Shown here in pieces: positions 1,935 to 64,000 of a stretch of DNA of 64,000 nucleotides. The notes under the pieces were generated by a model that worked only from the letters and a program-made list of their open reading frames with translations, had not been told where the DNA came from and did no database searches. The translations under genes and the position numbers were made by a program. Source of the stretch: Bugula neritina (Eukaryota > Animalia > Bryozoa). The stretch lies in contig OZ037771.1 of the NCBI GenBank assembly GCA_964035545.1, positions 9,231,408 through 9,295,407 on the forward strand, written 5' to 3'. How positions within the stretch are numbered: the first letter of the stretch is position 1; each line of letters begins with the position of its first letter.

Positions 1935-1987
<53 letters not shown>

Positions 1988-2031
1988 GTATACGAGAAAC
2001 ATTGTTATTTATTACTTTATTAGGTAAAGTA

Positions 2032-2080
2032 ATTACACTGATATTTCGGGTACCACTGTACCCATCTTCAGAGTAGCAAT
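2032..2080 (-). ncRNA. Minimal type I hammerhead ribozyme (PLE type)
   Basis: Minus strand reads attgctact CTGAAGA t gggtac agtg gtaccc GAAA ta TC agtgtaat: core boxes, 6-bp stem II, vestigial stem III, stem I act/agt extended by attgc/gtaat. Confidence 0.7.
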
Positions 2081-2124
2081 GAATGAAATTCAAAAATTAA
2101 TATGTTAATTTTTGAATTTCATTC

Positions 2125-2173
2125 ATTGCTACTCTGAAGATGATTACAGTGGTACCCGAAATATCAGTGTAAT
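2125..2173 (+). ncRNA. Minimal hammerhead ribozyme copy with damaged stem II
   Basis: Same motif as 2032-2080, but the 5' arm of stem II is gattac instead of gggtac (two mismatches). Confidence 0.5.
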
Positions 2174-2255
2174 TACTTTACCTAATAAAGTAATAAATAA
2201 CAATGTTTCTCGTATACCTATTTATAATCAAATTGCTAGCTCGTAAAGATATATT

Positions 2256-2334
<79 letters not shown>

Positions 2335-2478
2335 GTATATATATATAATGTATGCTGATTGTCAATCTAGTTGGAGTTCCAGCAAAGTAAAGTGCTCGAT
2401 ATCACGGGTGACAGAGCTAATATAATGTAGTGTGTTCAGATTGTTAATGATACATATATATTTTTTTATTTAAAAAAT

Positions 2479-2529
2479 CTCACACGACTATATAGTTTCG
2501 TACAGTAAACTGCACTCGTCAGGTGTTAG
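2479..2529 (-). ncRNA. Type I hammerhead ribozyme in the inverted pLTR
   Basis: Minus strand reads ctaacac CTGACGA gtgcag ttta ctgtac GAAA ctatatag TC gtgtgag. Confidence 0.85.
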
Positions 2530-2602
2530 ACTAAAAATAAATAAAATCTATGGAGCATACCGATTATTCAAATTTTTACATAAAGAAAATTATCATGCTA
2601 AA

Positions 2603-2989
2603 TGCCTCACAAAGTGCATCATATACCAAGCTACAGTTACAACCAAAGATGGCAGCCAACCCCAGACTTACGTGGGAACATCAGAAACAGAATTCAAAAC
2701 CAGATTGTATAACCACAAATCAACTTTTAACAACAAAACAAAAAAGAACCATACTGAATTGAGCAAATATATCTGGAAACTAAAAGACAAGAACACCCAT
2801 TTTGACATAACATGGAAAATTATGAAAAAGACCAACTCATACAACAAAGTCACTAAAAGGTGCAACCTCTGTCTATGGGAAAAATATTTCATAATATACC
2901 AGCCCAGCAAATCTTCCCTTAATAACAGAAATGAGATTCTATCCACATGCAGACATGCACGTAAGCACTACCTGGGCAACATCACATAA
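2603..2989 (+). pseudogene. GIY-YIG endonuclease domain, C-terminal part of a PLE ORF
   Basis: Open frame CLTKCIIYQATV...QTYVGTSETEFKTRLYNH...CNLCLWEK...LNNRNEILSTCRH. IIY/YVG are the GIY/YIG boxes. No RT domain and no start codon upstream. Confidence 0.85.
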
Positions 2990-3222
2990 CAATACTAACA
3001 ATTCTCAACCATAGTACTACCTATTATAAATTACCCTTTCCATCAAACATCTAGCTTTTATAGTCTAATCCTTTAGAAAAAGAGCAATTTAATTAATTAA
3101 TAGATGACACCAAATCTTCTACTATGTTTGCATTTCGTTTTACGTTGTGTTTAGCATGATAATTTTCTTTGTGTAAAGATTTGAATAATCGGTATGCTCC
3201 ATAGATTTTATTTATTTTTAGT

Positions 3223-3273
3223 CTAACACCTGACGAGCGCAGTTTACTGTGCGAAACTATATAGTCGTGTGAG
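3223..3273 (+). ncRNA. Type I hammerhead ribozyme in the 3' pLTR
   Basis: ctaacac CTGACGA gcgcag ttta ctgtgc GAAA ctatatag TC gtgtgag; GUC cleavage triplet and short palindromic stem III. Confidence 0.88.
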
Positions 3274-3401
3274 ATTTTTTAAATAAAAAAAATATATGTA
3301 TCATTAACAATCTGAACACACTACATTATACTAGCTCTGTCACCCGTGATATCGAGCACTTTACTTTGCTGGAACTCCAACTAGATTGACAATCAGCATA
3401 C

Positions 3402-3440
<39 letters not shown>

Positions 3441-3443
<3 letters not shown>

Positions 3444-3722
3444 TTGAGATATTACGCTCTCATTTAATGCTCAGCAATGACATTAAATGATCGAGCACTC
3501 TCACCATGGTCACAAACTCAAGCTGCTAGCATTTTGCAATGCTCGTGACTCCTAGGTGACCCCTAGAGTCACTTGAGCACTCTGGCTTGAGTTTACACAC
3601 CTTTTAAATATGCTTTAGTAAAACTATAAGTTTTACTATTGCGAAGGTGTAGGCCATGGTACTCTGTTCTGTGCTGATGAGGGGACAAATCCCGAAACAG
3701 CTGCTGTCCACAGATTGAGATA
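3441..3722 (+). mobile_element. Non-coding retrozyme-like monomer (271-bp unit with terminal redundancy agattgagatat)
   Basis: Begins and ends with the same 12-mer (3441 and 3712), contains several long hairpins and a complete hammerhead, has no ORF, and lies between (TA)n tracts. Confidence 0.72.
3668..3714 (+). ncRNA. Type I hammerhead ribozyme
   Basis: tctgtg CTGATGA ggggacaaatccc GAAA cagctgctg TC cacaga; all three stems form and the cleavage triplet is GUC. Confidence 0.9.
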
Positions 3723-3729
3723 TATATAT

Positions 3730-3809
<80 letters not shown>

Positions 3810-4047
3810 TTATTTATATATTTACATATATATTTATATATATATTTATGTAATTATCAGTGCCATATATATAAACTCACATCTCCGTTAGAATTGCAAA
3901 AACTATGATCTCAAACCACAATTTATAAGCTCAAAGACTAGCCCTGATGAATTCTTTTGGTGCTTCATATTTGCCAGAGCATACATATTATTTCTTGCAT
4001 GCATATCTTGTTTATATACGTGGATATCTAGAATAATAGTTACATAT

Positions 4048-7559: not shown

Positions 7560-24229
<16,670 letters not shown>

Positions 24230-24884: not shown

Positions 24885-27800
24885 CTAGAATGCTGACCAC
24901 AGAACTACCTTTTTCTTTGTATCACAAGTAAGCAGCATATTGCCATCAGGATGCCATGAACATGCTGTGACTGTGTGACTACAAAAACATAAATATACAG
25001 TGTAACTTTGATAATATACAGTGTAACTTTGATAATATACAGTGTAACTCTGATAATATACAGTGTAACTCTGATAATATACAGTATAACTCTGATAATA
25101 TACAGTGTAACTCTGATAATATACAGTGTAACTCTGATAATATACAGTATAACTCTGATAATATACAGTGTAACTCTGATAATATACAGTATAACTCTGA
25201 TAATATACAGTATAACTCTGATAATATACAGCATAACTCTGATAATATACAGTGTAACTCTGATAATATTCAGTATAACTCTGATAATATACAGTATAAC
25301 TCTGATAATATACAGTATAACTCTGATAATATACAGTATAACTCTGATAATATCATGAACAGTAATAATAACACAGCAACACTATAATAATAGACAGTAA
25401 GACTACAAATATACATGATGCACTTTAGAGAATATATTACTCAATTACATCAATTGTATCATGTGGCTGTAACTAATGTGTAACAAAGCAAAAGTGAAGT
25501 TAGCAAAATATAATAAGACACAACAACTATGTGAAATCATAACAAACTAAAGGAGGTTATTAGACTTATTGGCAGTCTAATAATGGTCATAAACAGATCA
25601 ATCTAAGGATAGAATCTACAGTCTACTATAGACTAGACTACTGCATGGATATACAACTTCCTCTAAACATACTCATGTTCTTTCAGCACTTTCTCCACTT
25701 TGTTCTTATTCACATTCCAGATGTAGACGGAGCCGTCAGAACCTCCACAGCAGGCATACTCGGCATCAGGGCTGTGCAACATAATGCAGAGTTTAGCAAC
25801 ATCAACCATTGCAACAAGGTGACAACTGGCTATACAGTAACAGTAAAACTGTAGTCATGTGTGCGTACATGTAGTAGCACAGCGAGCTGTAGTAGATACT
25901 GTATAGCGAGATGTAGTAGAAACTGTATAGTGAGCTGTAGTAGATACAGTATAGTGAGCTGTAGTAGAAACTGTATAGTGAGCTGTAGTATATACTGTAT
26001 AGTGAGCTGTAGTAGATACTGTATAGTGCGCTGTAGTAGATACTGTATAGCGAGCTGTAATAGATACTGTATAGTGAACTGTAGTAGAAACTGTATAGTG
26101 AGCTGTAGTAGAAACTGTATAGTGAGCTGTAGTATATACTGTATAGTGAGCTGTAGTAGATACTGTATAGTGAACTGTAGTAGATACTGTATAGCGAGAT
26201 GTAGTAGAAACTGTATAGTGAGCTGTAGTATATACTGTATAGTGAACTGTAGTAAATACTGTATAGTGAGCTGTAGTAGATACTGTATAGTGAGCTGTAG
26301 TAGATACTGTATAGTGAACTGTAGTAGATACTGTATAGTGAGCTGTAGTAGATACTGTATAATGAGATGTAGCAGATACTGTACAGTGAGCTGTAGCAGA
26401 TACTGTATAGTGAGCTGTAGTAAAACAAACTTGTAATAAATGATTGACTCACCTCAAAATACACTTGACATAGTCGGCTCCCACATTGAATGACGGGGCT
26501 CTACAATTAGCAGATATAACTCTTGCATGTGTGAATAGAAAACTTGAAGTAATTTTCTCAATTATTGCACACGTGAAAGATTCTATAGTAGGCGGTACGC
26601 AGTAGGCGGTACTCAGTGAGCGGTACGCAGTAGGCAGTACTCACGTGAAGGTAGAAACAACTTGATTCTTCCTCAGGTCTATCATCTTGAGTGAAGGTTC
26701 TCTAGTACAGCATAACAACGTGTTTCTGTCTACATGTAAATACAATGTGAAAGGTGGTATAGGTATACCATATACCTCTGCATACATGTATATACAAAAT
26801 TAAATACAATGTAAGTATAACACATATATCTGTCTACATGTGAACACAATGTAGGTGTAGGTAAACAAGTATATACAATGTGAAACATAGTGTAAGTGCA
26901 CCAGGACTTATACTTACCACCTGCCAGACACAGTGACGTGACTTTACCCTGGAGTGTGATCTCATTGGACTGAGCATCACCAGCTCTCTTGTCCCAAAAC
27001 CGAATTTTCTTATCAAAATGGCCGCTAATGACTAGAGAGCCGATAGTAACAAGAGTATTGCAGCTTGAGCCAGCAAACATAGTTCTCACACCTTCAATAA
27101 AACTAGAATATGATATGTGCGACAATATAAACTCAGTGCATGATAATATCATTACATTTAACACATGGTAGAATAAAACAGATGCTAGTAGGAAAAACAA
27201 CACACGTCACTAGTCAAGACATGATAGAAATGTCAAAGTATTGCAGGAGAGCTAACGTATGCTAGTATATCACACATAGGAAAGACCGACACATAATATA
27301 CACATTCCAACATACTTCTGTGCACACACATAATATATTACTATTTAATCTCTTGCAGTATAATAGCTTATAATCAGTTAAATGCATATTAAATTATTGT
27401 GGCTGTTCACTGAACTTACAGGCACGTTCCCGGAGGTCCCATTGTTTTAGAGTTCTGTCATTAGAACCTGAGACTACAAGGCCGGAATCCTCCATAAACC
27501 TAGCACAGTAGACTCGGTTGGCGTGACCCGTGAGAGTGTGACGATGTCTTTGATCTTCTATATTCCAAATATGGCAGGCAAAGTCATTGGATCCAGCAAG
27601 AAGCATGTGTGATGGCTGTGAAAATAATGCAATACTATAGGGAAGTCACACCAACATCAATAAACATGAGTAAACCAAACATAAACTTATGTAATGTGAG
27701 GAGAGAGAGAGAACTTCAACAATAATAGTGGTACTCTACCCAACACATGGTGCTATCATAATAATAGTGGTACTCTACCCAACACATGGTGCTATCAAAA

Positions 27801-43429: not shown

Positions 43430-46400
43430 TGTATATTCTGTATACCCTTGCAGTTTAGCAAATAAACACGGGAGAGGTCGACAACACACAGTGGTGCCTT
43501 TCTACAGAGCAGCTACTACCAACCAGTTCCCATCAGCTATAACAACTTCAGGTAACTTCAAACTGATAAAACCTTGGCTTCTAAGCTTGCTTTACAACTT
43601 TCATATATCTGCAGCAGTCGTGCTGGTTCCACATATAGGCGTGGATGATTGGCACTATACCAATAGTCTTATGAAACTGTTCACATCTGTATCTTTGTAT
43701 CTTCGGAAACTGCATACTTTTTGCGGGTTAGGAATAGCTCTTAATTATATGCGTGCTTTTCAAGTTATAAATTATTCATAATTTGATGAGTGTGGCTTGC
43801 TATATAAAATAACGCCTAGTTTTGTATTAAAAGTAATTATTTTTATAAAAATTGTCATGTAGGTAATGTAGTTTTAACTTGGTTTGGTTTTGGTTTTCAC
43901 ATTTTGTAAACTTGTATAGTTTATATTCAACAAAACTTCCATTTGTGACCATTAACATTAGCAGGCTTGAGAAGGATGATCAATCTTGTTGAATGTAGTC
44001 AGTTGCTAGGTGAACTTTTGAGTTTATCATAAATTTTCTAGCAATCTGTACTTTTAACAGGATAAAGTTTTGTGTTCATCATATGAGTTGTTAAATTAAA
44101 TTTTAGTTAAAATTTGATTAATTATAAATAAAATTCTATTCTTTTTGGACAGCACCAACACCTGCATGTTGGATTAAACCAGCTCCTAGATGCGACCCGA
44201 ACTCACCATACAGAACTATTGATGGTTCTTGTAACAACTTGAATAATCCTACTTGGGGTCAGTCAGTGAGGCCAATTGGACGTCGTTTGCCTCCCAAATA
44301 CAATCCAGGTATTCTATACCAGTAAATGCACAAAGCTGTGTGCACACATAATATTGAAGTGAAACCACAGTTTCTAGCAGCTGCAACAGTTGAAGCATCA
44401 CCAACTGTTAACTTGTGTTTAGGGAGTTTAACAGATATCAGAACCATTGGAGTGACAGGCAGACCTCTGCCAAGTGCCAGGGAGGTGTCTACTGGTGTAC
44501 TAGAACTTGCAACTAAGAGAGATTTGTCAACTACTTTGACAGGGATGCATATGACTTGGGGTCAATTCATTGATCATGACCTCACCCATGTACCACTAAC
44601 ACCACCAGTAAGTCACTCTTTAACAGTTGTAGTAAGACATCAACATACAGCTTCTCTGTTGATGATGGTGAATAAGAGCAACATTCATGCATAGTTATAA
44701 GATTAATTTTTCTATCTATACACACAAGAAGATGGTAGAGTCTTACTAATGTATAATCACTGATTTCTAACCTAAACTGCTACCAGATCTCATAGCAAGA
44801 TAAATGTGACTATAACAGCACAAACTTGGAGTACCAAATATGCAACATAAAACAAAATGTAATGTGATTGAAGTGTATACAAAACTATATTATGGTTATG
44901 CCAAGAATATCAGATCAATTGATAACACTTAGAACTTGGCAACAGTTCAATACTAGTAAATCGCAAGACATGTGAACTATTAATTTCTACAGTTATTTTT
45001 AGATAAAGTTCTGTTTGAGAACAAAGTTTTGGGAAAAAGCAAAGTTGTCAAGGAATTTAAGGACAATTAATTAGTATAAAAGCAGATTAGGGCAACATTA
45101 TTTTGTTCTCAACTGAATATTTTAGATGAAATGCTGTAATCAACCAGCTGGAAATCAACACGAAGATTGTATCCCCATAGGTGTGCCTCCAACTGATCAT
45201 TTCTATGGGCCAAGGGGAACAACGTGCTTAGAGCTGAGGCGATCTATGGCCATCAAACCGGGACAGTGTGGTATGTCCCATGATGCTATTTTATTAATGC
45301 TCATTCTAGCGAAATCTATGCTTCATCTAGTTAAATATTTCTTACTATTTTCCATAATACAAGTTCTGTAAACTATTTATTTATTCTTTATGTGTATTTT
45401 ATACAGGAAATACCTTTCGAGAGCAGCTCAATAACCTAACTTCCTACATAGATGCTGGTTTAGTTTACGGTAGCACAGATGAGAGAGCCAAGCAGCTAAG
45501 GTCGTTCTCTAGAGGTCAAATGGCAGATTCAGATGCACGGTATCACTTACCCATTGAGAAACCAGGAACTAAATGTGACATACCACCAATAAATCACCCA
45601 GACAAGAGATGCTTTGCTGCAGGTGAACATTTTTAAGTTCTGTAACTTGATTGGTAACTTTGGCAATGTGTTTATACCTATGATGTTTATACTGTTTAGA
45701 GCATAGCTGACTGAGTTGAACAAATGGGCACTATATAAAACATGTTTAAGGTTTTATGATAACACTTTAATTCAATTGTAAACTAAATCTTTATCCAATA
45801 TACTTTGCTACTAATATAAACAATATTTTAAAGCGTTTAATTTCTAGAACTCTCTAAAACATTATGAAATTGTAGTTCTAAAGTTCTGATCAATTAGCTA
45901 GCATGTATCACATACATATGCTTGTTACTTCATCAATTATTCTATTTTATTCTTCTTAGGAGACACTAAAGCTCAATTAATGATGACAACCTGTTACAAA
46001 TGTGTAGACATAATAAAATGCTACTCTGATGGATTTCTTGTCTAACCTGTTGTTTCTGGCAAGGTGATCGAAGATCGAATGAATGGGGAGGACTCACTGC
46101 AGTGCATGTTATCTTCATCAGAGAACACAATAGAATAGCAGAAGTATTTTACAGAGACTTGAAGTCTTCCAACCCAGGAACATCAGAAAGAGACTTGGAC
46201 GAGAAGATTTATCAGGAAGTCAGAAGAATTATTGCAGCTCAAATTCAGGTTACCAGATTGTCAAATCTAAAGTGTGGAAGTCTTAGCTGCTAGGCCAGTT
46301 AATGAGTTAGTGGGCAAAAATGTAAATTAAAAATAGTTAATGTAGATTAGCTGTGACTATGTTGCTTTTCATAATTGAGATAATGAACAAACTTGATAAT

Positions 46401-49400
46401 TTTCTGTAAATTACAAAATGGTTATGCAATTAAATATCAACTTATTGCTTATTTACTTATTTCCATACAATATAAGAATAATATAGGAAATTTGTTTGTT
46501 ATAGCTTCTAACTTTCAATAAACAAGCAAGGCAATTGTGTTTTGTATAGCTAATTTTTTTGCAAATAATTTATTTTTACTAGTTGAAAAAGCCACTGCAA
46601 AACAAAAATAATGTGGAAAGAGAACTTAATTTTATAAAATTTGCATACTTCAGGTTATAAATTATGGTGAGTACTTACCTAATGTACTTGGCGACTACCA
46701 AATGAGGAAATATGGTTTGTACCTGGAGCATGGCTTTCCTCGGGGAGAGAAAAATATATACGATGCAAACTTAGATGCCACAGCTTCAAATGTGTTTGGT
46801 ACAGCAGCGTTTCGATTTGGTCACAGTGAGGTTGCATTTGGCACTCAGCCAAAAAACAGGTAACATTTTTGCACTCCAATTGGTGTATAGCAACAGCTTA
46901 TCTCTCAATTCACATCAAAGCAAAATTCTCAACAAGGAAAACAGACTTTCAGACAGTTTGACTCACTTATACATAAAGTAAATTATAATGTTGAGTGACA
47001 GAGATGCCAGCTCCTTCTGGATTAGGTTTTAAAACTTCGGTAAGGTTTGTTTTCGACACGTTATGATTGGTAAATTAAAGTAATACTGACCATATTTCTG
47101 TAGTCTGTAGTTTCCTTTCTTATAATTAATAAGATAGCATTGGAAGACCACCTAATATTTATAATTGAAGATGTCATAACAAACCATTATGGAAACTTCT
47201 AGTTACAGCATGTATTTCAATTAAACAAATATAAGTTTTGGCACAAGATTACTGCGAATAATGATTTTAAAAAAGCTTTACTATAGGTTTGATTTTTCTT
47301 TTAGTCACTATCACAATACTTCGAGCTTCGTACCATTTCTGGAGCTTTTAAATCAACCAACAACGTACAGACAGATACAGAATGACAATGCAATCCGAGG
47401 AATGATTGTTGAGCCATGTCTAAAGACATCTAAGTTTTCAGCTGGTAAATTTTTTTAAATTTGTAAGCTTGTACTGATTAACTAGTTACAGATAGGCAAA
47501 AAGAAATAAAGTCAACTAGATTTTTATATCTTGTTATGCCCTAAATGATGTATATAATAGAAAAAGTATAACAATGAATTTAATGGATCTGAACTTGTGA
47601 CTTGTAGTTAGCTAAAATGTAATAAAATACTTCAAGTATATACCTTTCAAATAGTTTGACTGCTATAACAATTAATTAACATTTAGATTAAAGTGTGTAC
47701 GAATTTATATGAAGTGCCAATTATTATAGGAAATTTATTGGTAAAAAAACTAATCTCCACAGTTATATACAGTTTCACTCAAATCGAAAACAAACTTGAA
47801 GTAGGTCAGTGTAAAAAATATTGATGGAAATTATGTATATGACAAAATGCTGACAAAACTAATTAATTAGATTGCACAGTTGCATATACTTCAATGTGAA
47901 ATATAATTTAGATCAACTTTAGGTATGTTATAGTTGTGACACATGTATAAATTATGGATATACAAAAATATAAGAGAAAATTGAATTATTTTGTTGCTAT
48001 TGTTACAAGGGAATGTTTCCTTGCAGTAAAAGAAAGTATTTCAGGAAGTAACAATCACATCATCATAATTAGAATTTCCTTTGTAACTGTTTCAAAGAAT
48101 GCATAAATCCTACTATTTATGATGAATAATTATTGCATAATGTGACTAAACTGACCAAAAATTAATATACACATCGGTGTCTGGGTTAGACATAATATAA
48201 TATATTTAATAGAGAACTAATTACAATACTTTAATTTTTCTTGCTATATTAGTACGTGTTGTGTTTAATTTGATGCAGAGGTAAAGAATCATCTGTTTGA
48301 GAGAACTTTTAATGGAAGTGGATTAGACTTGCCTGCTATAAGTACCCAGAGAAGCAGAGAGCATGGTCAGTAAATATTCTACATAATTACTTATATATTC
48401 TTATCTCAAAGAGTCTTAGATAACTGTAATATGTTAAGTCATACATCTTAAAATAATGAATATAAAACATGCTAATGAAAACTACCTTGCAAACTTGCTG
48501 ATTATTTTAAATGCAAAAAAAAGCCTGCATTTATGCCGTAAACAGTAAAATATTTCTTATAGTGGTGAAATGTTTTAAAAATTGTATTTAAAAAGTTGTT
48601 TAAATGTTGTGAAGGTTTACCTACTTACAACTCATGGAGGAAGTTCTGTGGACTAAATGCAGTTACTTTTGACTACATGCCAGACCACACTGATCAACAG
48701 AGACGGAGATTTGCTCAAACCTACGATCACCCAGACGATATTGACCTTTTCCCAGGAGCCATCACTGAAAGGTGGGATTTTTCAATTTGCACACAATTGA
48801 TTCACTGTAAAACTTACATGAAGTTGATGTCTGAGTGTGTTTATAATAGCACTAACATTCTACTGTAACAGATTGGTGTCGCCAGATGCTCATGTAGGAC
48901 CGACATTTGCATGTCTCATTGGACAGGAGTTTCAGAGGCTGAAGAAAGGAGACAGATTCTGGTTTGAGAATCAAGGAACTTACCCTAACCACTTTACCAC
49001 CAATCAAATTATACAGCTCTCTAAGGTCTGTTTGGTTATACACTACCATGTGTTAAATTATTATCTTCATCATCAAATATTAGTATAGATATTAAATAAT
49101 GAAACATCAGCATATAATATGAGTTTTAGACATTTATAAAACATGATGCTATTGGCTCTTCTATAAAAAATCATTTATTTAAAATAATATTATAACAATG
49201 AAATTAATTAATTGATAGTGGAAATAAATAAAGATTTTAAACTGTTTAACGAATTTGTTGAAAACTCTTGTTTATTGCTGCATGTTTTACACTATGCAAT
49301 AGTAAACTAGCAATGTAATGTATACCAACTATGAATACTTGCTGATGTAAAATAAGAACTGCATGTAGCTCAGTATTGATTTATTATCGATTATATGAAA

Positions 49401-49570
49401 TACTCTACTTGTTGCAGATAAAGCTATCTAAACTAGTGTGTGACAACACCAACACTGCTGTGGTACCAGAAAGCGTTTTTAAACTAAAGTCAAAGTTCGT
49501 TAGATGTGAAGATCTCCCATCGCTGGATCTTCAACACTGGCTAAAGTCATATCCGTCATACGGATATTAG
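42168..49570 (+). CDS. Secreted animal heme peroxidase, paralog 2, 13 exons, about 665 aa
   Basis: Exons 42168-42283, 43454-43551, 44153-44308, 44423-44607, 45126-45270, 45407-45622, 46064-46248, 46654-46859, 47305-47444, 48279-48365, 48615-48771, 48872-49025, 49418-49570 join in phase (1998 nt). Signal peptide (M)RYFIVYIVTTLFCVTQG (alternative start 42189); same intron positions as paralog 1. Confidence 0.93.
42695..42895. repeat. 26-bp minisatellite (gtgttagatggtacactgtatagcat)
   Basis: About 7 tandem copies in intron 1 of paralog 2. Confidence 0.9.
43361..43426. repeat. (TA)n microsatellite
   Basis: Directly visible, just upstream of the exon 2 acceptor. Confidence 0.95.
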
Positions 49571-50660: not shown

Positions 50661-51734
50661 TTAACTGCGGGCCGCCCGCTTCATGCGTTTAATAGACTCC
50701 TGTAGATATTTGAGTTCACTGGATGCAGCCTGCACCCGCGGGGCCAGTCTGTACACTTCTTGCTCTAGGTCGTGTGCCTTAGCTTCTACTTCGCGTAGGT
50801 TGCGGGCCAGGGGGGACGAACGAGAGGAAGTCTGCTGTCTGTGCCTTTTCCGTTCGGAGGATGGAAGTGGAGGAGGGAGTGTATACGCCTTCGTGTCTAC
50901 CCTCTGTAGTACGACACGGGGGAATGTATGCGGGTGGCGTAGAGGACTGTGAGGTGGAGAGTTAGTTGATTGTATAGGTTTATCTGCGGCTCCAGAGATG
51001 ATGGGTCGCGGGGAGGGAAAGCCTTGCTCCAGGCGAGACAGCCGAGCTGGGTCGGTGATGAGGGGTTTGATGGCGTTGAGAAATGCGGGATATGATGATT
51101 CGTCTACTTCATAGACGTGTCCTTGAAAACACTGCATAGTGCGTTGGTGACGCAGTAGGTAATCACGATTGTAACTATATGCTCCGCAGGGGCAGAACGT
51201 GGTGATGTAATGCTGCGGCAAGTGTACTTTCAGCCTGCGGTGGGTTGTAAATCGCTGCTGGCAGAGGTTGCATTCGCGGTTACCATCACCTCCTTTATGA
51301 GTCTTAATCTCTCTCTCTGTGGCAGGGGTAATCCAGTTAGAGGTTGCTTCCAACTGGGGTGGCAGTTGCCTGGTTGTAGAAGTCGTTGGGGCCGGCTCTG
51401 GGTCCCACGCCATCTCTAGAGAAGGCATGCCCGGAGAGACGGGCGCGAGTGTGTCTACAAAAGTAGAATTATTGTTAGATCGCGGTGGATCTTTACAACA
51501 TAATTCTAGTGACTGTCGACTGTTACTAGCCTGAGAGTCACAGCTTTTGGAATGCACTCGAGGAACCGATGAATCATGTGTGGACTGACCAAGAACAGTG
51601 TCTAGCTCCAGGTCTAACAGACCGTCGGCCATTACAGTGTCCTCATCGTCATTCACATGAAACGTGGTTCCCAGTAATTCTGATTCAATCTGCTGAATTA
51701 GTTCAGAATTTACTGGCATCGAGCTCGTTTCCAT
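50661..51734 (-). CDS. Accessory 3' ORF of element B: C2H2-type zinc finger region plus C-terminal coiled coil
   Basis: 357 aa intact; CNLCQQRFTTHRRLKVHLPQH followed by CPC...H...C; heptad-rich C-terminus; homologous remnants in element C. Confidence 0.8.
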   Translation of the reverse strand: METSSMPVNSELIQQIESELLGTTFHVNDDEDTVMADGLLDLELDTVLGQSTHDSSVPRVHSKSCDSQASNSRQSLELCCKDPPRSNNNSTFVDTLAPVSPGMPSLEMAWDPEPAPTTSTTRQLPPQLEATSNWITPATEREIKTHKGGDGNRECNLCQQRFTTHRRLKVHLPQHYITTFCPCGAYSYNRDYLLRHQRTMQCFQGHVYEVDESSYPAFLNAIKPLITDPARLSRLEQGFPSPRPIISGAADKPIQSTNSPPHSPLRHPHTFPRVVLQRVDTKAYTLPPPLPSSERKRHRQQTSSRSSPLARNLREVEAKAHDLEQEVYRLAPRVQAASSELKYLQESIKRMKRAARS

Positions 51735-51751
51735 GAATAGGAATACAAGAC

Positions 51752-54700
51752 TTATACTGGCTTACCTGTGAACTCGGTATTAATGTCCATACTCAACGTT
51801 CTTGGTAAGGTTGGAGCTGGTTGTGAGATACGTCTGCCTTTGGCGATGTCAGCGTAAGAAAAGGCTGAGCATCGTTTCTGAGGCACGAGGTCGGAACTAT
51901 TTGCTTTACGCGCATTAATTCCTCCCACTATTCCGCCCTCGCAAAAGTTGATATTTGCGTGGGGTTCACAACTCCAACATTTTATCGTACGGTTTTCCCC
52001 TAGACTTTCATGCGTGCCGCTTCTAATGCAGTCACATATGAAGTCTTCCAAATATGGTGGGGGTTTCCTCGTACGCTGTCCCCGTTCTAGGGGGGGTGAC
52101 ACGCTCGCCGGTTCGTTAGTAGGGGCCTCTAATGGCGTCTCTACTTCACCGTGAGCGGTCACCTCTTCTTGTTCTCCGGATGGAGCCCCTCCCTCCGTGG
52201 GGGTTTGCACTTCCGGAACCGGCTCGGTTTCTGGAAGTGATGGAATTAGACTTGGCGGCGGCGGACACGCTTCCGTTGGCAAAAGCTGCCGCTCCTCTCT
52301 CACCAAGTTTTCTTCCCGCGGTATGACCACTTCGTATTCAGGTCCATGCCGCCGTCGCCCACGCGTTGTTGTCTGCCTCCTGGGCTCCAACAACGGGGGG
52401 GCTTCTCCCGCTGCGTCGGGGCTAGCCCAATACGGTTTCAAGCGAGACTCATTCTGGATAAACACCTGTCCTAAGCGCTCAATCTTGTACGTATGATTGG
52501 GCATAGCCTCGACGATCACGTAGGGTCCTACGAACTTAGGCTTCAGTTTATCAGCCTGTCCGCGACGCCTACGGTAATTGACCATCCACACCTTATCTCC
52601 CGTTTGGTAGAGAGGTGGTTCATCGGAATCTTCGTGCCGCACCTTCCACTGCTGTTCGCGCAGTATATCGTGCGCGGCCTTCATCCGTTCCACTAGTTCA
52701 CTGGCATACTCGTGAACCGAGTTGTCTTGCTCTGGAACGTGGTAGGTGATATGGTCAGGGACACGAGTCTCTCTCTTGAGCATCAAGAGGTTTGGGGTCT
52801 CACCAGTACTGGTGTGTGGGGTGCTACGGTATGCCCGCATGACTTGCGGCAACACCGTATCCCATTCCTCTTGGCCTCGTCCAAGGAGGAGACTCCGGAG
52901 CGCATCACCTAGCATCCGGTTGTTGCGCTCCACCACTCCATTACCTTGAGGGTGGTAGGGGGTGGTCCGACTCTGATTTACTCCCCAGAGGTGGCAAAGG
53001 TCGCTCATCAGTTGAGACTGGAATTGAGCGCCTTGATCAGAGTGTATCTGTTCTGGAAGACCAAAATAACAGAATACATGTTGGTCTAGTGCCCTGGCCA
53101 CTGTTGGGGCTGACGCATCTGGGATAGCCAGAGCATCCGCCCACCTAGTAAAGTGGTCGGTTAGTACTAAGATCCAGTTATTGCCTCTGGGGGTCAGGGG
53201 CATGGGTCCGACCAGGTCTACAGCGACTACTTGCCAGGGCCTACCAGCATATAGCCTCCGCCGTCCTGCTTCACCAGGGGGCGGCTATGCTTACTGGCCT
53301 GGCAGATCTCACACTGTTTGACTCTGAGTCGGACGTCACGCTCCATTTGTGGCCAATACCACCGGAGTCGTAATTTGGATATCACTCTCTTGACCCCTGC
53401 GTGGGCCTGTTTGTGAGTATCCCAAATCAACTCACGGCGGATGGCCGTGGGGCAGACTACCCTCTTCCTCTCCGGGTGTCTGCCGCTGGCGGCTAGAGAG
53501 ATGGTTAGTAACCCATCCTGCCCGATCCGCAGCGAGTCCCAACGCTGACAGTATAGCCGGAACTCGGCACATCCCTGTCTTATGCGTTCCTCGCTGGGTC
53601 GTCGCCCTTCCCTTTTGGCCCGATATATGTCTGCCACGACTCCAGGCAGCTCTTCTTGGAGCTTCTTCAGCTCTCGAACATTACCGGCCAGTACAGGGTT
53701 GGCGCGGAGGTTTTGTACACCCTCCGGGGACTCATCAACTCCTTGCCTGAGTTGACCCTGGTCCCAGTCAAACGGTGCTCCGTGGTGAGCCAGCGTCTCC
53801 AACTCACATCGCGGGGGACCTCCATCCCTCCTCTCGATGTTGAGACACTGTTTGCAACCTCCCTCAGGTCGGCGACTCAAACCATCCGCATTGCTGTGTC
53901 TCTTGCCCGGTCGATGTTCGATCCGGTATGAGAACTCAGCTAGTATTTCGAGCCACCGGGCGACCTGACTAGAGGGCTCTGCTCTCTTGCACAACCAGAT
54001 CAGCGAGGCATGATCCGTACGCAGCCGGAACTTCCTGCCATATAGGTATGGTCTGAAGTGCTTCACTGACTTGATTACTGCCAGCAGCTCCTTGCGGGTA
54101 GTGCAGTAATTTCGTTCAGCGGGTGAGAGAGACTTGCTGTAGTAGGCTACTACTACCTCTCGGCCTTCCTGCACTTGTGACAGCACAGCGCCAACATTTT
54201 GGTCACTGGCGTCTGTGTCGAGGATGTACTCCAGAGTGGGGTCTGGGTAGGCCAAGATGGGCGCCGTTAGTAGGCAGCCCTTGAGGCGGTCGAACGCTCC
54301 TTGTTCGACTGGGGTCCACTGCCACGTCACTCCCTTTGCGGTGAGCCGATTTAACGGCTGTGCTATGCCCGCAAAGTCTGGTATGTATTGCCTGTAATAC
54401 CCTACCAGCCCCAAGAAAGCCCGGAGTCCGGTCAAGTCTTGGGGGGTGACCCAGTCTTCTATTGCCCGCACCTTCTCGGGATCCGTTGCCACGCCGTTTC
54501 GACCGACAACGTGCCCCAGGTACTTAACCTCCGGCTGCAATAGAGCGCACTTGGAAGGTTTGAGCTTAAGACCGGCACCTCGGAGTCTCTCAAAGACCTC
54601 CTGCAAACGACTGACATGCGTCTCGAAGTCTGGGGAGATCACGATGACATCATCGAGGTAGACCAGCAGTGTCTTCCAATGGAGCCCGCTAAGGACTTGC

Positions 54701-56380
54701 TCCATCAGCCTCTGGAAGGTGGCCGCGGCGGAGGTTAACCCGAAGGGTAGCACCTTCCACTTCCACAACCCGTCCCGTGTGATAAACGCCGTTTTCTCCT
54801 GGGCGTCGGGACTCAGTGGGACTTGCCAATAGCCGCTTAGCAAGTCTAACGTACTGAAGTACTTGCTGCCGGCTAGGGCGTCCAGTGACTCGTCAATACG
54901 AGGTAGAGGGTAGGCGTCCTGTATGGTTACGTTGTTGAGTTTACGGTAATCCACACAGAACCGCCAACTGCCGTCTTTCTTCCGGACCAGTACGACCGGT
55001 GAGCTCCACGCACTATGGGCGGGCTCTATGAGGCCGCGGTCCAGAAGATCCCGTACTTGTCGGCTAACCTCCTTCTCTTTCTCCGGCCCCAGCCTGCGTG
55101 TGGGCTGCCGGACAGGGACTGTCCCTGCAGTCAGCGGTATTTCGTGCCTGACAACTCCAGTCAGCCCCACGTCATGATCTCCGCTACTGAACACATCACC
55201 GTAGTCGCGTAGCAACTTCGCCATAGCTTGGCGTTCCTTGTTGCTCGCGCAGCCGCCACAGGCTGTTTCATATAACTCCCGGAGATGTGCTGGGACTGCC
55301 CCTCGTCCCTGAATAGGGTGTCGAGGGGGTGTCTCCGTCGCGTCACCCAGCGACGGGCCCACGTCCTCTTCCTGGATGGAGTGGAACCGGCCCAGCATTG
55401 ACCCAGCTGGGAGCTCAATGGGCTCGGTAAAGGGGTTGACACACTGCACTAAGACCTCCCCTCGCTCAGTTAGTCGGTTTAAACTACTGGCGAGTTGGAT
55501 CCTTTCGTGCGCGCCTTCAACGACCCCGAGCCTGGCTATCCGGTTGCTGTTCACTCGGCAGTGGATAGTAGCTCTGGAGCGTCCGGGCACGGTGCAGTTT
55601 CGAACTACCTGGACACCGCCCACCAGAGGACGCCCAAACTTATCCACACAGGCGAGTTCTCGCCCGCCCATCAGCACCACCGACTTGCTAAAGTCTATTC
55701 GGCACTGGTGTTGCTTCAAGAAGGGCATGCCGAGGATGGCATCTTCCTCCAGTTGGCTTATGACAAAGGTCTCCTGTACAGCCTGGTCTCGGACACGCCC
55801 GGGGAGCTCGATAATACCGTAAAAGGGAATACATGACCCGTCTGCCAGGGTGCCATGTTCCCCCGTATATGGTCGTACTCTATCCCTGTCCCGGCGGGGC
55901 AGTGCTTCAAAGACTCTACGACTGAGAAGGTTGGTAGTACAACCGGAGTCGAGCAGGAAAGTGACGGCGTTGCCGGCCACCTTTCCGGGTAGGAAATAGC
56001 TCTCTCCATGTGGTTGTACTTTCACCCCCCCCCCCCGCATGTGCTGTCCTAGATGGGTAGGACGGCGGGGGTTTCACCCGTGGTTTGCGGGGTTTCCGGC
56101 GGCGAGGTTGATGCCGGCTGGGTTTGGGGCTCTCCACTGGGCCTTCTGGCTCCATTTCAGTGGCGGGCTCCTCTTCCCGAGGTAACCGGTGGAACCGGTT
56201 GGCGAGTGGCAGGGAGAAGGTACTCGGCCGTTGTGCGGGCCTACTAGTCCTGCGTGGTACCTGCCACTCGGGGGGAGTGTTCCGTCGTGTCCGTACGGAC
56301 AGACGGCGGCGTGTCCCACCATACTCCTTTAGTTGCGGCCCGCGGGGAGGGAGAGCGTCCGCGGGCCGTGACAGTTTAAC
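51752..56380 (-). CDS. pol: Pol polyprotein of element B, with frameshifts near 56030 and 53279
   Basis: LLDSG, YLDD, TDAS, HHCC, DDE and KFVGPY across ORFs 53227-56040 and 51752-53203; both breaks fall in homopolymer runs. Confidence 0.92.
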
Positions 56381-57195
56381 GCCCCCTGGTATTGGGGTCG
56401 TCCTTGCTGTCCATGGTCTCGACCAGCACTACTCCAGTCTGGCCCCACAGGTGTTGGGGGCAACCGCAGGGCCTGACTGGGGACAGCGCCGGCCAGAATT
56501 GTTGCCAGCTGTCCCAGCATCTCTACCATGCGGTCCACTTCGGCTTCCAGCGGGGGGGCTTCGGGGCTTGTTGTAGCCCTGGCAGCACTGACTCCAACTA
56601 CTGGTGGGTTCCGTTGTGCTCGATGCATTTGGGTAGCCAACAGGTAAGCTTCTCCAGCTTTCAGGGCATCTTCTATCCTGGTTATCCCTTTTGCTCGGAG
56701 CTGATGGTGTAGGCCCGGGTCGTTGAGTGACTGGACAAAGCCGTCGTATGTGTGACGCTCTTGGTGTTGTGCGGGCAGATCGCCGTACGCAATCTGTGCT
56801 AGCTTCTTCACCGTCGCGGCATGTTCTTGCAGCGAGGTTCGCGGGGCGCGGCACAGCCTCTGTAGCTTAGTCCTAGCGTCTACTGCGGAGATACCAAAAC
56901 GGGCCCGCAGCGCAGCCAGTATTCCGTTTACGTCCGTTCCCACTCCGTACGGCTTGGCTTGCTCCGTCAACGCCCTCCGCAATTGGATGAGGGCCACTCT
57001 ATGCGGCCATTGAGCAATCTCCATTACTTCTCTAAATTCTTGTATAAACTGTTCGACATCTTCTGACCCAGTAAAGGTGGGAGCTTTCAAGCAATATCTA
57101 TACGCTTCTTCTCCCTCACGATTCACAGGATTACCATCATTTCTACGCTCACCTTCTACTGGGGGTGGTTGCATTCTAGCATTTTCAGTCTCCAT
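56329..57195 (-). CDS. gag: Gag of element B (no zinc knuckle)
   Basis: 288 aa after the PBS; aligns with gag A (P-F-G--DVEQFI-EF, ALRARFG). Confidence 0.9.
   Translation of the reverse strand: METENARMQPPPVEGERRNDGNPVNREGEEAYRYCLKAPTFTGSEDVEQFIQEFREVMEIAQWPHRVALIQLRRALTEQAKPYGVGTDVNGILAALRARFGISAVDARTKLQRLCRAPRTSLQEHAATVKKLAQIAYGDLPAQHQERHTYDGFVQSLNDPGLHHQLRAKGITRIEDALKAGEAYLLATQMHRAQRNPPVVGVSAARATTSPEAPPLEAEVDRMVEMLGQLATILAGAVPSQALRLPPTPVGPDWSSAGRDHGQQGRPQYQGALNCHGPRTLSLPAGRN
56336..56380 (-). promoter_or_regulatory. Programmed -1 frameshift signal of element B
   Basis: G TTA AAC in gag phase, 5-nt spacer, 10-bp stem cggcccgcgg/ccgcgggccg; the -1 frame is open and homologous to the pol A N-terminus. 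Confidence 0.78.
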
Positions 57196-57591
57196 CTTTG
57201 ATGTGCACTATCCCACTGCTGCCACCACTGTTATGATTTCCAGAATTAGGGTCGATGTGCAACCAAGAGAGTCTATTTATTACTAGAAAAACTTCACCGT
57301 GATAAGTCGAGTAGATATCGTTATATTTTAATACAAGAATACATAATAAAAACTAACATACAACAGTTAATAATACGCACGTCTATTTAATTTACAGCAC
57401 TATCCTCAACTGAGCTAGTAGCACGAAGCTGCTACTATTACTCATAAACAGCCTAGCTAATTGGCTAGTACATTGTTCCGGGTCAATACGCAACCTTGCG
57501 TATTGTGTTGCTGGTAGCTCCACGAGCCACCACAATATTATATATATAGTTTGAAAAGACTAGAATTTGTTTGCCTATAATGAAGCTTGAG

Positions 57592-60876: not shown

Positions 60877-63800
60877 TGTTATGTTTTCTGTTATTGTCGG
60901 TGTATAATCAGATTAACACATGACCAGTAGTTATGCAATCGACCTCACAGATGGGTTGCAGGAGAATAAGATAATATATTTTTACGATAGATACAACAAT
61001 AAAACTTCACATTCACTTCAGACAGTTTTACAACTCAGTGTCAAGTGTTCACTGTTTTTCTGCCCAGTAACAACTGATGCGGGAGAAGACTGTTCCTCGT
61101 GATCTAATCAAGATCTTCATTCTGATTGGAGCTCAGACTGATCATATCACTAGCCACGAGGTCTCCCGCATGGTACGAGGAATATAGAAACGCCGCGATC
61201 ACCTTTTATCACAATGAAAGACGGAAGCGGCGAGCTCCCTCCTTCATCCATATATATATATATACGAATCTGTGAGCCATCACACGGTCCCCCAACAGAA
61301 AGCCCACTTTCTGATAACAATCATACAAAAAATGGCGAACATTACATGGGTACACACGTCTAGATAACAGTGATATTAAAGGAGAAAAAGGAACAAAGTA
61401 TTAGGTATATATATATAATGAGAGAAGTGCCACACAGATACATCAGTAAGTTACACAAGAGGGTAGGAGCTGTCATTTACATGATAACAATGCCGTGCAT
61501 CGAGTATGCCCAGGAAGGACGTGACTCAGAGATATTTCCTCCTCAAGGGGGGAACTATTGTTGCTCAGCCTGAGAACGATATTTGGCTTGTCGAGTACAG
61601 AGTCTCCTTTTTATCCGACCCACCGAATCTTTTAACTGGTACAGGCCGGTGGTTGTAGTTAACAGGCTGGGGGCCAGTTGGGTGAAATCCGCCTGTAACC
61701 GCAGGAGCCGCTCTTCTACAGTGGCCAAGTGGGTTGGTCTCTCAGGTTTTGGGGCAGAAGCCCCTGTGGGTGACTCTGCCTCCTCCTTTATAACGTTCTG
61801 AGTTGGTTCGTCCACCTTGGACACAGCCTCGGGCTAATCGGCGACTATGGGAGAGCGGTGTCGGTGGGAGAGCGGTGTCGGGCATACTTCAGCACAGTCT
61901 GAAATCCTTGGGTTAGGACGGCTAGCATTAAAGCCTTTCTAACTAGAGGGCGTATAACTGTCAGGAACTCTGGATAAGTATCAGCATCCACTGTGTGGTG
62001 GACTCCGGGGTGACATCCGCTAGCCATGTGTGCGGTAACGGGGTATGGATAGGATAGCAGGTAATGGGCATTCACGTTCATCTTTAGTGCACGAATAGAC
62101 GAACAATCCTCCTGGCACACTAGACATCTGGTACTTCCGCGCGGCCCCCACACGGCTTCTATCTTTCTTTCCGTAGCCGGCAACACCCACCGCCAACGAC
62201 GGCAGAGTGGCGCCGGTAGCCCTCCGTCTTCCTCCATGAGCGTGGAAGGATGTGGGTGAGGTGCGTGGTCTTGTGACCCTTTGGTAGCAGGTCGAGTGTT
62301 ACCTGAAAGAGTTCAACAGTGTTAGTTACATACACTGAAGTGCCGCCAGCGTTAGACAGCCTGACAGCCCCCCTCTCAGTTAGACACTCGCGATATCTAT
62401 GCCAGTGAAAAATTGGCCGAAAACACGAACTGCAACCGAGAATCACTAAGATCTCCTAGTCAGTCCGTGTTCTCACCACTTACTTTCACTGACGGTATAT
62501 CCATCCTAGTTAACTAAGTTGAGTTAGAGCTGACTGATGCAATTTAGTTTCCATACCAGAAGAATATAGTTAACTCACCCCTCGATCCGGTATAGCCAGA
62601 CATACTGAATTTTGGAATGATTACTATGAGTGACTACTAGCACGTCTGCTCTTAACTGCATCAGCATAAGAAAAGACCGGGCAATGTGGTTGTGGCGTGT
62701 GGTTGGGGCACTTCACAACTGGCGGATTAATTTCGCTCGTGGTTCCGCACATGTAAAAGTCAGTTTTTACGTGGAGCCCACAACTCCCACAATTAACTGA
62801 TGGTTCTTCCGTATGGCACCCGCTGGACTTACATACTTGCCGCTTTGAACACAGTCACATATGGAGTCTTGTAAGTACGCTGGAGGTTGTCTGGTACGCT
62901 GTCCTCGTTCCAGAGGAGGCGGTGCACTCACCGATGGACTATCAAGTTCCACTGGTGGGACTTCTGGCTCATTAGTGACTATTTCTTCTCTGATTTCACC
63001 GGACGCAGCCCCTCTCTCCGTGGGGGTTTCCACTTCTGGGCCCAGCTCAGGCTCCGGAAGTGACGGTGTCAGACCTGGCGCTGGAGGCGGCGGACCCACT
63101 TCTGCTGGGGGAAGCGGTCATTCGTTTCTTGCCAGGTCCTTTGCCCCCGGCACGACCACCTCATATTTGGGTCCACGCCGCTGTCGCCCGCGCGTTGTTG
63201 TGTGCCTCTGGGGCTCCAACAATGGGGGGCTTCTCCCACCGCGTCGGGGCTGGCCCAATACGGCTTCAAGCTAGCCTCATTCTGGACAAACACCTGTCCT
63301 GAGCGCTCAATCTTGTAGGTATGGTTGGGCCTCGACCACTACGTAGGGTCCCACGAACTTGGGCTGTCACTTAGCCGCCTGTCCGCGACGCATACGATGA
63401 TTGACCATCCACACCCAGTCTCCTACCTGGTAGAGGGGTGGTTCTTCTGAGTCTTCACGCCGCACCTGCCACTGCTTCTCTCGCAGCATTTCGTGTGCGG
63501 CCTTCATCCATTCCACCAGTTGGCTGGCGTACTCGTGGACCAAGTTGTCCTGCTCAGGAACATGGTGGGTAAGGTAATCGGGCACCCAAGTCTCTCGACC
63601 GAGCATTAGGAAGTTGGGAGTCTCACCAGTACTGGTGTGTGAGTATTACGATAGGTACACATGACTTGCGGCAGTATCGTATCCCTTTCCTCCTGACTCC
63701 GGCGGAGGAGCAGACTCCGGAGGGCATCACCCAGCATCCGGTTGTTGCGCTCCACCACTCCGTTACCCTGTGGATGGTAAGGGGTGGTCCTGGTTTGATT

Positions 63801-64000
63801 TACTCTCCAGAGGCGGCAAAGGTCGCTCATCAGCTGAGACGGGAATTGAGCGCCTTGGTCTGAATGTATCTGTTCCGGGAGGCCGAAATAGCAGAACACA
63901 TTTTGATCCAGAACCCTGGCCACTGTCGGAGCCGACGCGTCTGGGATAACCAAGGTGTCGGCCCACCTAGTAAAGTGGTCGGTCAATACTAAGATCCAGC
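60877..64000 (-). mobile_element. Degraded Gypsy element C (3' LTR 60877-61284, accessory zinc-finger ORF remnants, integrase remnants), continues beyond the window
   Basis: Integrase fragments (TDHFTRWAD, TTPYHPQGNG) with several frameshifts; PPT-adjacent cagaaagccc..tttctgataa shared with element B; TG...CA LTR. Confidence 0.9.

Follow-up and report, generated by a model that had tools for sequence, protein, structure and literature searches.

A predicted non-coding retrozyme of Bugula neritina shares a hairpin motif with Hydra-type Penelope-like elements

Described retrozymes and Penelope-like elements

Metazoan non-LTR retrozymes are highly self-paired, non-coding units of 150-450 nt with a GC content below 50% and a type I hammerhead, occurring as tandem copies in genomes that also hold Penelope-like elements (PLEs) (PMC7229834). 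Those of coral, mussel, and axolotl yield circular RNA; PLEs are called only a "strong candidate" mobiliser, and the available part of the text gives no recognition signal (PMC7229834). In Xenopus, solo monomers stand beside dimers and multimers, and the preprint, as far as its available part goes, derives retrozymes from PLE terminal repeats, reports that eight of nine predicted frog retrozymes failed to cleave, and leaves the mobilisation mechanism to be elucidated (bioRxiv 10.64898/2026.07.22.740005). The identity of the enzyme that mobilises animal retrozymes, and the way in which it selects them, is the issue left open in the available parts of both sources (PMC7229834, bioRxiv 10.64898/2026.07.22.740005).

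Among the PLEs themselves, the Hydra-clade C-terminal EN+ elements have (TA)n as their target, a hammerhead near the 3' end, and inverted arms (PMC8557442). In the Poseidon PLE of Anolis, reverse transcription starts within the element's RNA, and its two start sites define the tail; priming proceeds without target homology, and cleavage is unnecessary for insertion (PMC11167929).

The window discussed here, a 64,000-nt stretch of Bugula neritina DNA, holds a 271-nt unit that is, on the features examined, a metazoan non-LTR retrozyme with predicted cleavage and circularity (Table 1). Its length lies inside the published range, its GC content is 43%, the longest ATG ORF in its circle reads 23 aa (either strand), and it has in common with the described family the type I hammerhead, the self-pairing, probable tandem copies, and the presence of PLEs in the same genome. 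One difference is its host, bryozoans being a phylum not named in the available text of PMC7229834. That the unit belongs to a retrozyme family we regard as very probable. With the Xenopus retrozymes it shares solo monomers beside probable dimers and multimers and a putative origin from PLE terminal repeats; there, however, the link is one of sequence homology, whereas the unit has no alignable homology and shares only a conserved structured motif in the same register. Under the two-consecutive-unit rule of that preprint, as given in its available part, the solo copy in the window does not count as an active retrozyme. The features of plant LTR retrozymes (a type III hammerhead within LTRs) are missing from the unit, which has a type I core and no long terminal repeats.

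Table 1. Positions of the features discussed; coordinates are those of the window unless a contig is named
Feature	Position	Strand	Remarks
Palindromic two-armed insertion	1979..2226	.	minimal hammerhead-like core per arm; no hairpin motif
Second, inverted arm of the Hydra-clade PLE insertion	2342..2602	-	hammerhead core 2522, motif 2391-2417
5'-truncated Hydra-clade PLE	2474..3403	+	GIY-YIG endonuclease remnant, homology 2600-2983
PLE's own PLE-type hammerhead	within 2474..3403	+	core 3230-3266
PLE hairpin motif	3334-3360	+	PLE ends 43 nt past motif, where a second motif would begin
Left (TA)n target tract	3404..3441	.	from sequence
Retrozyme monomer, non-coding	3441..3723	+	271-nt unit + 7-12 nt overlap; repeat period, run contigs
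5' overlap copy, 12 nt	3441..3452	+	begins 3 nt past cut-site equivalent
Hydra-PLE-type hairpin 1	3456..3499	+	predicted binding and start signal
Hydra-PLE-type hairpin 2	3541..3581	+	41 nt past hairpin 1
Canonical type I hammerhead	3662..3719	+	predicted cut between 3708 and 3709; descriptor match, variant pattern
3' overlap copy	3712..3723	+	family's fixed 3' end; ATAT = likely priming microhomology with target
Right (TA)n target tract	3720..3849	.	from sequence
L202 element	L202 488-648	reverse	canonical hammerhead, hairpin motif
L201 element	L201 1-103		contig end cuts upstream part

The unit, its hammerhead, and its surroundings

The earlier note, made from the letters of the window, had described a 12-mer at both ends of the unit, and this was borne out: AGATTGAGATAT stands at 3441-3452 and again at 3712-3723, giving a period of 271. 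Five of its 12 letters (the initial A and the closing ATAT) can equally be assigned to the flanking (TA)n, and the certain element overlap is 7 nt. A target-site duplication was rejected as the origin of the 12-mer because stem I includes it and each unit has it a single time where head joins tail. The suggestion that the copy represents one turn of a circle plus a redundancy holds for the unit and the overlap, which are real, but a tandem array supplying a linear template, with its 5' end given by the upstream ribozyme cut, would explain the overlap equally well. The window copy is solo, with private changes at 3492 and 3651. Folded as a circle, as the earlier note had proposed, the unit is strongly paired: its minimum free energy (MFE) is -96.3 kcal/mol with 71% of bases paired, whereas 200 dinucleotide-shuffled versions gave -60.0 +/- 5.1 kcal/mol and none went below -76.2 (z -7.1), a degree of self-pairing in line with that of metazoan non-LTR retrozymes. 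All six helices listed in that note are present at the given sequences and in the circular MFE structure, two of them with a wobble or a bulge.

The hammerhead was likewise found complete, with GUC and a predicted cut after 3708. Its stem I (3668-3673/3709-3714) does run on through an internal loop, beyond which 3662-3664 pair with 3717-3719; CUGAUGA (3674-3680), stem II (3681-3684/3690-3693), GAAA (3694-3697), and GUC (3706-3708) make up the canonical core, and a 3-nt loop closes stem III. By descriptor, the 64-kb window has three distinct type I cores, namely that of the unit and two in the neighbouring PLE; the latter's hammerhead has an extra base before stem II that is missing from the unit's. 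The predicted active fold differs from the MFE structure and lies 3.7 kcal/mol higher in the circle. The Infernal search with Rfam that the earlier note had suggested came out negative, as the unit's hammerhead was unmatched at gathering score and also at E<=10; the unit's sequence is unrelated to the Rfam models, and both cleavage and retrozyme circles are predictions for the unit. Rfam miRNA matches in the window correspond to the palindrome at 1979-2226 and the TA tracts. The unit's exact hammerhead pattern had no match in metagenome contigs or in viral contigs.

The unit sits among nested insertions in (TA)n. Its neighbour at 2342-3403 is a two-armed PLE insertion with a PLE-type hammerhead in each arm and, judged by its sequence, a dead Hydra-clade PLE fragment. 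The endonuclease remnant (P0001) has 110 longer relatives and itself holds the CxxC and CxH marks (around E and N); its full-length relatives, which are some 50-60% identical, carry RWK in 23/31, DKT/S in 30/31, and CxCX5C in 30/31 cases, marks that are not in the fragment. Pfam recognised neither the fragment nor five of its relatives. An autonomous Hydra-clade PLE combines a reverse transcriptase (RT) with a C-terminal GIY-YIG endonuclease in a single ORF; the neighbour keeps the endonuclease end only, and the unit has no ORF. The unit does show one Hydra-PLE-like trait: it inserts into (TA)n, and its 3' end is fixed. The two likely lie side by side since both target (TA)n, a sequence described as the target of Hydra elements in the available text of PMC8557442. 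In blastn, the unit did not match the neighbour's terminal region and reached nothing better than E 0.04 against the Hydra loci (best 80 of 411). The earlier note had placed the unit beside its likely mobiliser: the neighbour's clade is indeed the likely mobiliser, but the neighbour itself is dead, 5'-truncated, and without alignable DNA similarity.

Further upstream, a near-perfect 122-nt palindrome lies between (TA)n tracts (1979-2226), with the better stem II in its minus arm; on its sequence it is probably an insertion of another PLE family. A more GC-rich stretch at 1827-1936, against the first (TA)n tract, is possibly a fourth insertion. Elsewhere in the window, two intron-rich animal haem peroxidase genes lie at 7560-24226 and 44128-49552 (+); the first matches a Bugula neritina protein at 86-99% identity per single-exon match, which points to a cheilostome bryozoan as the likely host, and the second is more diverged. 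ORFs of Gypsy-type LTR retrotransposons (protease, RT, RNase H, integrase) occupy about 15900-23100 (+), 50661-57207 (-), and 63609-63998 (-), the first element, whose ends repeat near 15967 and 22765, sitting in an intron of the peroxidase gene at 7560-24226. A WD40 repeat fragment stands amid minisatellites at 27397-27645 (-).

At least half of the unit's words occur in 20/24 listed public sequence runs from nine studies; runs X21-X24 have next to none, which is no proof of absence. Eight runs were examined in detail at the level of contigs: X20 is on record as RNA (an oligo-dT library), X9, X14, and X11 are RNA by guess, X3 and X12 are DNA by guess, and the kind of X1 is not recorded. The head-to-tail joint 3711->3441 is present in all four RNA or putative RNA runs, where it takes 8.74/8.74, 245.1/245.1, 62.3/88.7, and 23.3/33.2 of the depth at 3441-3450 (70-100%). 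It also occurs in three of four further runs (X1, X3, X12) and is not among the rows listed for X13, which proves no absence either; in X12 it consists of one 301-nt contig (271+30). In X1 and X3, 1024 and 1109 contigs match the unit with many flanks, that is, multiple genomic copies, and the listed joint depth is 11.2/16032 and 50.9/29457, with short contigs hiding joints. Head-to-tail forms exist, then, and probably in DNA too. The idea of a multi-copy, non-coding, head-to-tail hammerhead repeat was thus upheld (20/24 runs, joint in 7/8 examined). As for the circular RNA suggested earlier, the joint it calls for is present; a contig joint from a circle is the same as one from a tandem transcript, so the two are indistinguishable here, and the putative DNA runs hold the joint as well. 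The unit may be transcribed: contigs of it, taken without a silent control stretch, occur in the recorded RNA run X20 and in the three putative RNA runs.

The ends of these contigs are unevenly distributed. In the RNA or putative RNA runs, nine of nine 3' loose ends fall at 3706-3720 (20 of 36 rows listed); in the four further runs the best-supported 3' ends among the rows listed are at 3719 (11 and 9 contigs), followed by TA-rich sequence, and other rows end at 3620-3675, partly as indel variants. The 5' ends are scattered, with 15/26 pieces listed in the four further runs starting at 3542-3583, around hairpin 2. Depth at 3711-3720 is 5- to 7-fold higher than at 3441-3450 in X1 and X3, a skew hinting that most copies of the unit are 5'-truncated. 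Variants that disrupt predicted pairs are common (16-44%) at 3485, 3540, and 3579; those at 3540 and 3579 reach 27-44% in X1 and X3 and are absent from X9, X14, and X11, which may mean that few source copies are expressed or that individuals differ. Within the hammerhead, the two commonest variants are the free N7 (3678; 13%, 19%) and, within stem II, the replacement of a G-U pair by G-C (3690; 20%, 26%), and among the listed core changes G3676 and A3677 vary by at most 0.3% in X1 and X3. This pattern is as expected if functional ribozymes were being propagated.

A hairpin shared with Hydra-type PLEs

The PLE origin of retrozymes is already published; the new part is a shared hairpin of the form GCTC-stem-YY-GAGCACT. 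The window has four motif sites (0.10 expected), two in the unit and one per PLE arm. Hydra-type PLE loci were drawn from metagenome contigs, and the best 80 of 411 were used. In these best 80 of 411 loci, the 30.6 kb of sense sequence 3' of the endonuclease gave 33 matches (26/80 loci), the antisense strand gave none, and 86.6 kb of ORF gave one. Where at least 300 nt follow downstream, the motif is found in 24/56 and missing from 32/56 loci (again of the best 80 of 411), and early ends account for only some of the latter. Seven of the best 80 of 411 loci have twin motifs 35-47 nt apart, the two in the unit being 41 nt apart.

The inner sequences speak for a real stem. Among 29 distinct ones, the first pair forms in 28/29 cases, the second in 21/27, and the third in 18/20, with the first inner pair being C-G in 14 and T-A in 14; chance motif matches in viral contigs, taken as a control, pair in 40/115, 41/110, and 40/99. 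The observed pairing was reached by 0/10000 shuffles, which ignore relatedness. The motif is variable in length, and the pairs were counted by a script, not by a covariance model. By these counts, the hairpin stem covaries; in the best 80 of 411 Hydra-type PLE loci the motif lies on the sense strand only. A single twin-motif match in viral contigs, L128, was set aside, being without PLE homology in the stretch examined.

The position of the motif relative to the ends of copies was compared in 11 shorter PLE copies that align at no less than 80% to a motif-bearing relative. Seven, from four families, end 0-7 nt before the motif (L010, L047, L049, L058, L060, L072, L076; L076 ends 21 nt before it in one of three alignments), and four (L026, L027, L028, L040) end 62-267 nt from it. 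In the tandem or circular register, hairpin 1 of the unit starts 18 nt past the cut and 3-7 nt past the genomic 3' end, so that the unit ends just before a hairpin like 7/11 of the short PLE copies. The order of parts also agrees: a tandem Hydra PLE reads ORF, hammerhead, AU-rich start, hairpin 1, hairpin 2, ORF, and the unit keeps this order with about 90 nt replacing the ORF. Published consensus sequences carry the motif as well. In the PMC8557442 supplement it stands in at least three Hydra consensus sequences: the curated Hydra-1_Ajap has the twin motif at its very start, before the ORF, and two others stop shortly past a single motif.

A second non-coding hammerhead element was sought as a test. 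Its family was first met after the PLE in L066 and L067, and in L202 a copy lies between (TA)n tracts and starts at the motif, with the core 85 nt past the motif (92 nt in the unit) and the end 7 nt past the cut. Its sequence is unrelated to the 271-nt unit; the hairpin evidence comes from one copy, which has a mismatch at the first inner pair. L201 and L202 resemble animal DNA inside a bacterial genome bin, and in L202 a minimal hammerhead of PLE type lies about 230 nt upstream.

Compared with Hydra-clade PLEs, then, the locus agrees in the (TA)n target, the hammerhead near the 3' end, and the inverted arms, and differs in that the unit has no ORF; in the available text of PMC8557442 the motif is undescribed and Bryozoa are not among the phyla listed. 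With the Poseidon PLE of Anolis, a member of a different clade, it would share an internal start of reverse transcription, two sites, and AT-rich targets (PMC11167929, available part). In Poseidon, however, the start is an AC-rich stem loop within the ORF and involves no homology to the target, whereas in the unit and the Hydra type it would be an AU-rich spot just 5' of the GCUC/GAGCACU hairpin, ahead of the ORF. A literature search over titles and the starts of abstracts found neither the motif nor a bryozoan retrozyme described, though the supplements of PMC7229834 and of the 2026 preprint may contain either.

Proposed mobilisation and its rivals

We consider it likely that the unit is a gene-less mini-Hydra element, moved into (TA)n by a Hydra-clade PLE protein via the hairpin. 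The mechanism would begin with head-to-tail copies, which exist and occur in RNA libraries at contig level. Multimers would then be cleaved by the hammerhead into monomers of 271 nt, and a host ligase would circularise some of these, by analogy with the retrozymes of coral, mussel, and axolotl (PMC7229834, available part); on balance we lean toward circles of the unit being made in vivo. A PLE protein acting in trans would bind the hairpin, nick (TA)n, and prime on AUAU 3-7 nt upstream, the priming site being deduced from the fact that copies end there. Reverse transcription would proceed back across a hammerhead left uncut; a linear monomer, once cut, has just 11-15 nt upstream of the start, and the template would therefore have to be a circle or an uncut multimer. 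Early stops would end most copies, often near hairpin 2, with the window copy representing a full turn; its 5' end, 3-4 nt past the cut-site equivalent, is compatible with both templates. An intact partner Hydra PLE was not seen in the material examined, which included no whole genome.

The same family and the same PLE mobiliser could also work with linear RNA only, the upstream cut of a tandem transcript giving the 5' end and the downstream hammerhead staying uncut, with circles absent or by-products. We find this somewhat doubtful yet well worth weighing. The window copy begins 3-4 nt past the cut-site equivalent, as a full-length linear copy would, the joint is present in putative DNA runs, X20 is an oligo-dT library, and unprocessed RNA is the main substrate in the available part of PMC11167929. 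The start, however, lies 11-15 nt from the cut, and one round of copying on a circle, followed by 7-12 nt of strand displacement, would finish at that very point; circles also suit the rod-like fold (z -7.1) and the joint's 70-100% share of depth in RNA or putative RNA runs, and the tested retrozymes of three animals do make them (PMC7229834, available part). The choice affects the circularisation step and the template, and leaves the motif claim unchanged.

Two further readings would change the nature of the unit or of its mobiliser. That it is the pLTR of a coding PLE, with the ORF left uncopied here, which the earlier note had named as its own refutation, is very improbable. The unit does have the anatomy of a PLE (hammerhead, twin hairpin, (TA)n target), and one long contig in three putative RNA runs joins other sequence to it at 3580, just past hairpin 2, a junction that probably reflects a truncated copy within some host transcript and could also stem from a parent PLE; by eye, though, the 30 letters before 3580 are unlike the end of a Hydra ORF. 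Joints without an intervening ORF in 7/8 runs, the failure of blastn to link the unit to the neighbour's terminal region or, at better than E 0.04, to the best 80 of 411 Hydra loci, and the lack of the neighbour's extra base before stem II speak against the pLTR reading. Mobilisation of a hammerhead satellite by another enzyme (a Neptune-type PLE or a LINE), with the hairpin a relic, promoter, or translation element, is in our view unlikely. The twin motif of PLEs just ahead of the ORF start stands where promoter or translation signals are expected, and the element at 1979-2226 targets (TA)n with a hammerhead but no motif. Against this reading, the hairpin stem covaries and is strand-specific, 3' ends fall 0-7 nt before the first or second motif, and a translation signal would be useless to a non-coding unit, yet two unrelated ones keep the hairpin.

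Taken alone, the retrozyme is a new family of an ordinary sort, which likely extends both retrozymes and Hydra PLEs to Bryozoa as far as the literature search shows. What reaches further is a covarying hairpin of Hydra PLEs that is found in two unrelated non-coding elements at a fixed place relative to the ends of copies, and which points to an enzyme clade and a signal. Tentatively, and with slightly less than even confidence, we propose that the GCUC-stem-UU-GAGCACU hairpin is the recognition and start signal of the Hydra-PLE RT, that retrozymes of several invertebrate phyla are gene-less mini-PLEs keeping this hairpin, and that the circle is the direct template. The hairpin makes the mobiliser question directly testable in vitro and, if the proposal is true, any small circle bearing this tag could be copied into (TA)n DNA by a telomerase-related enzyme.
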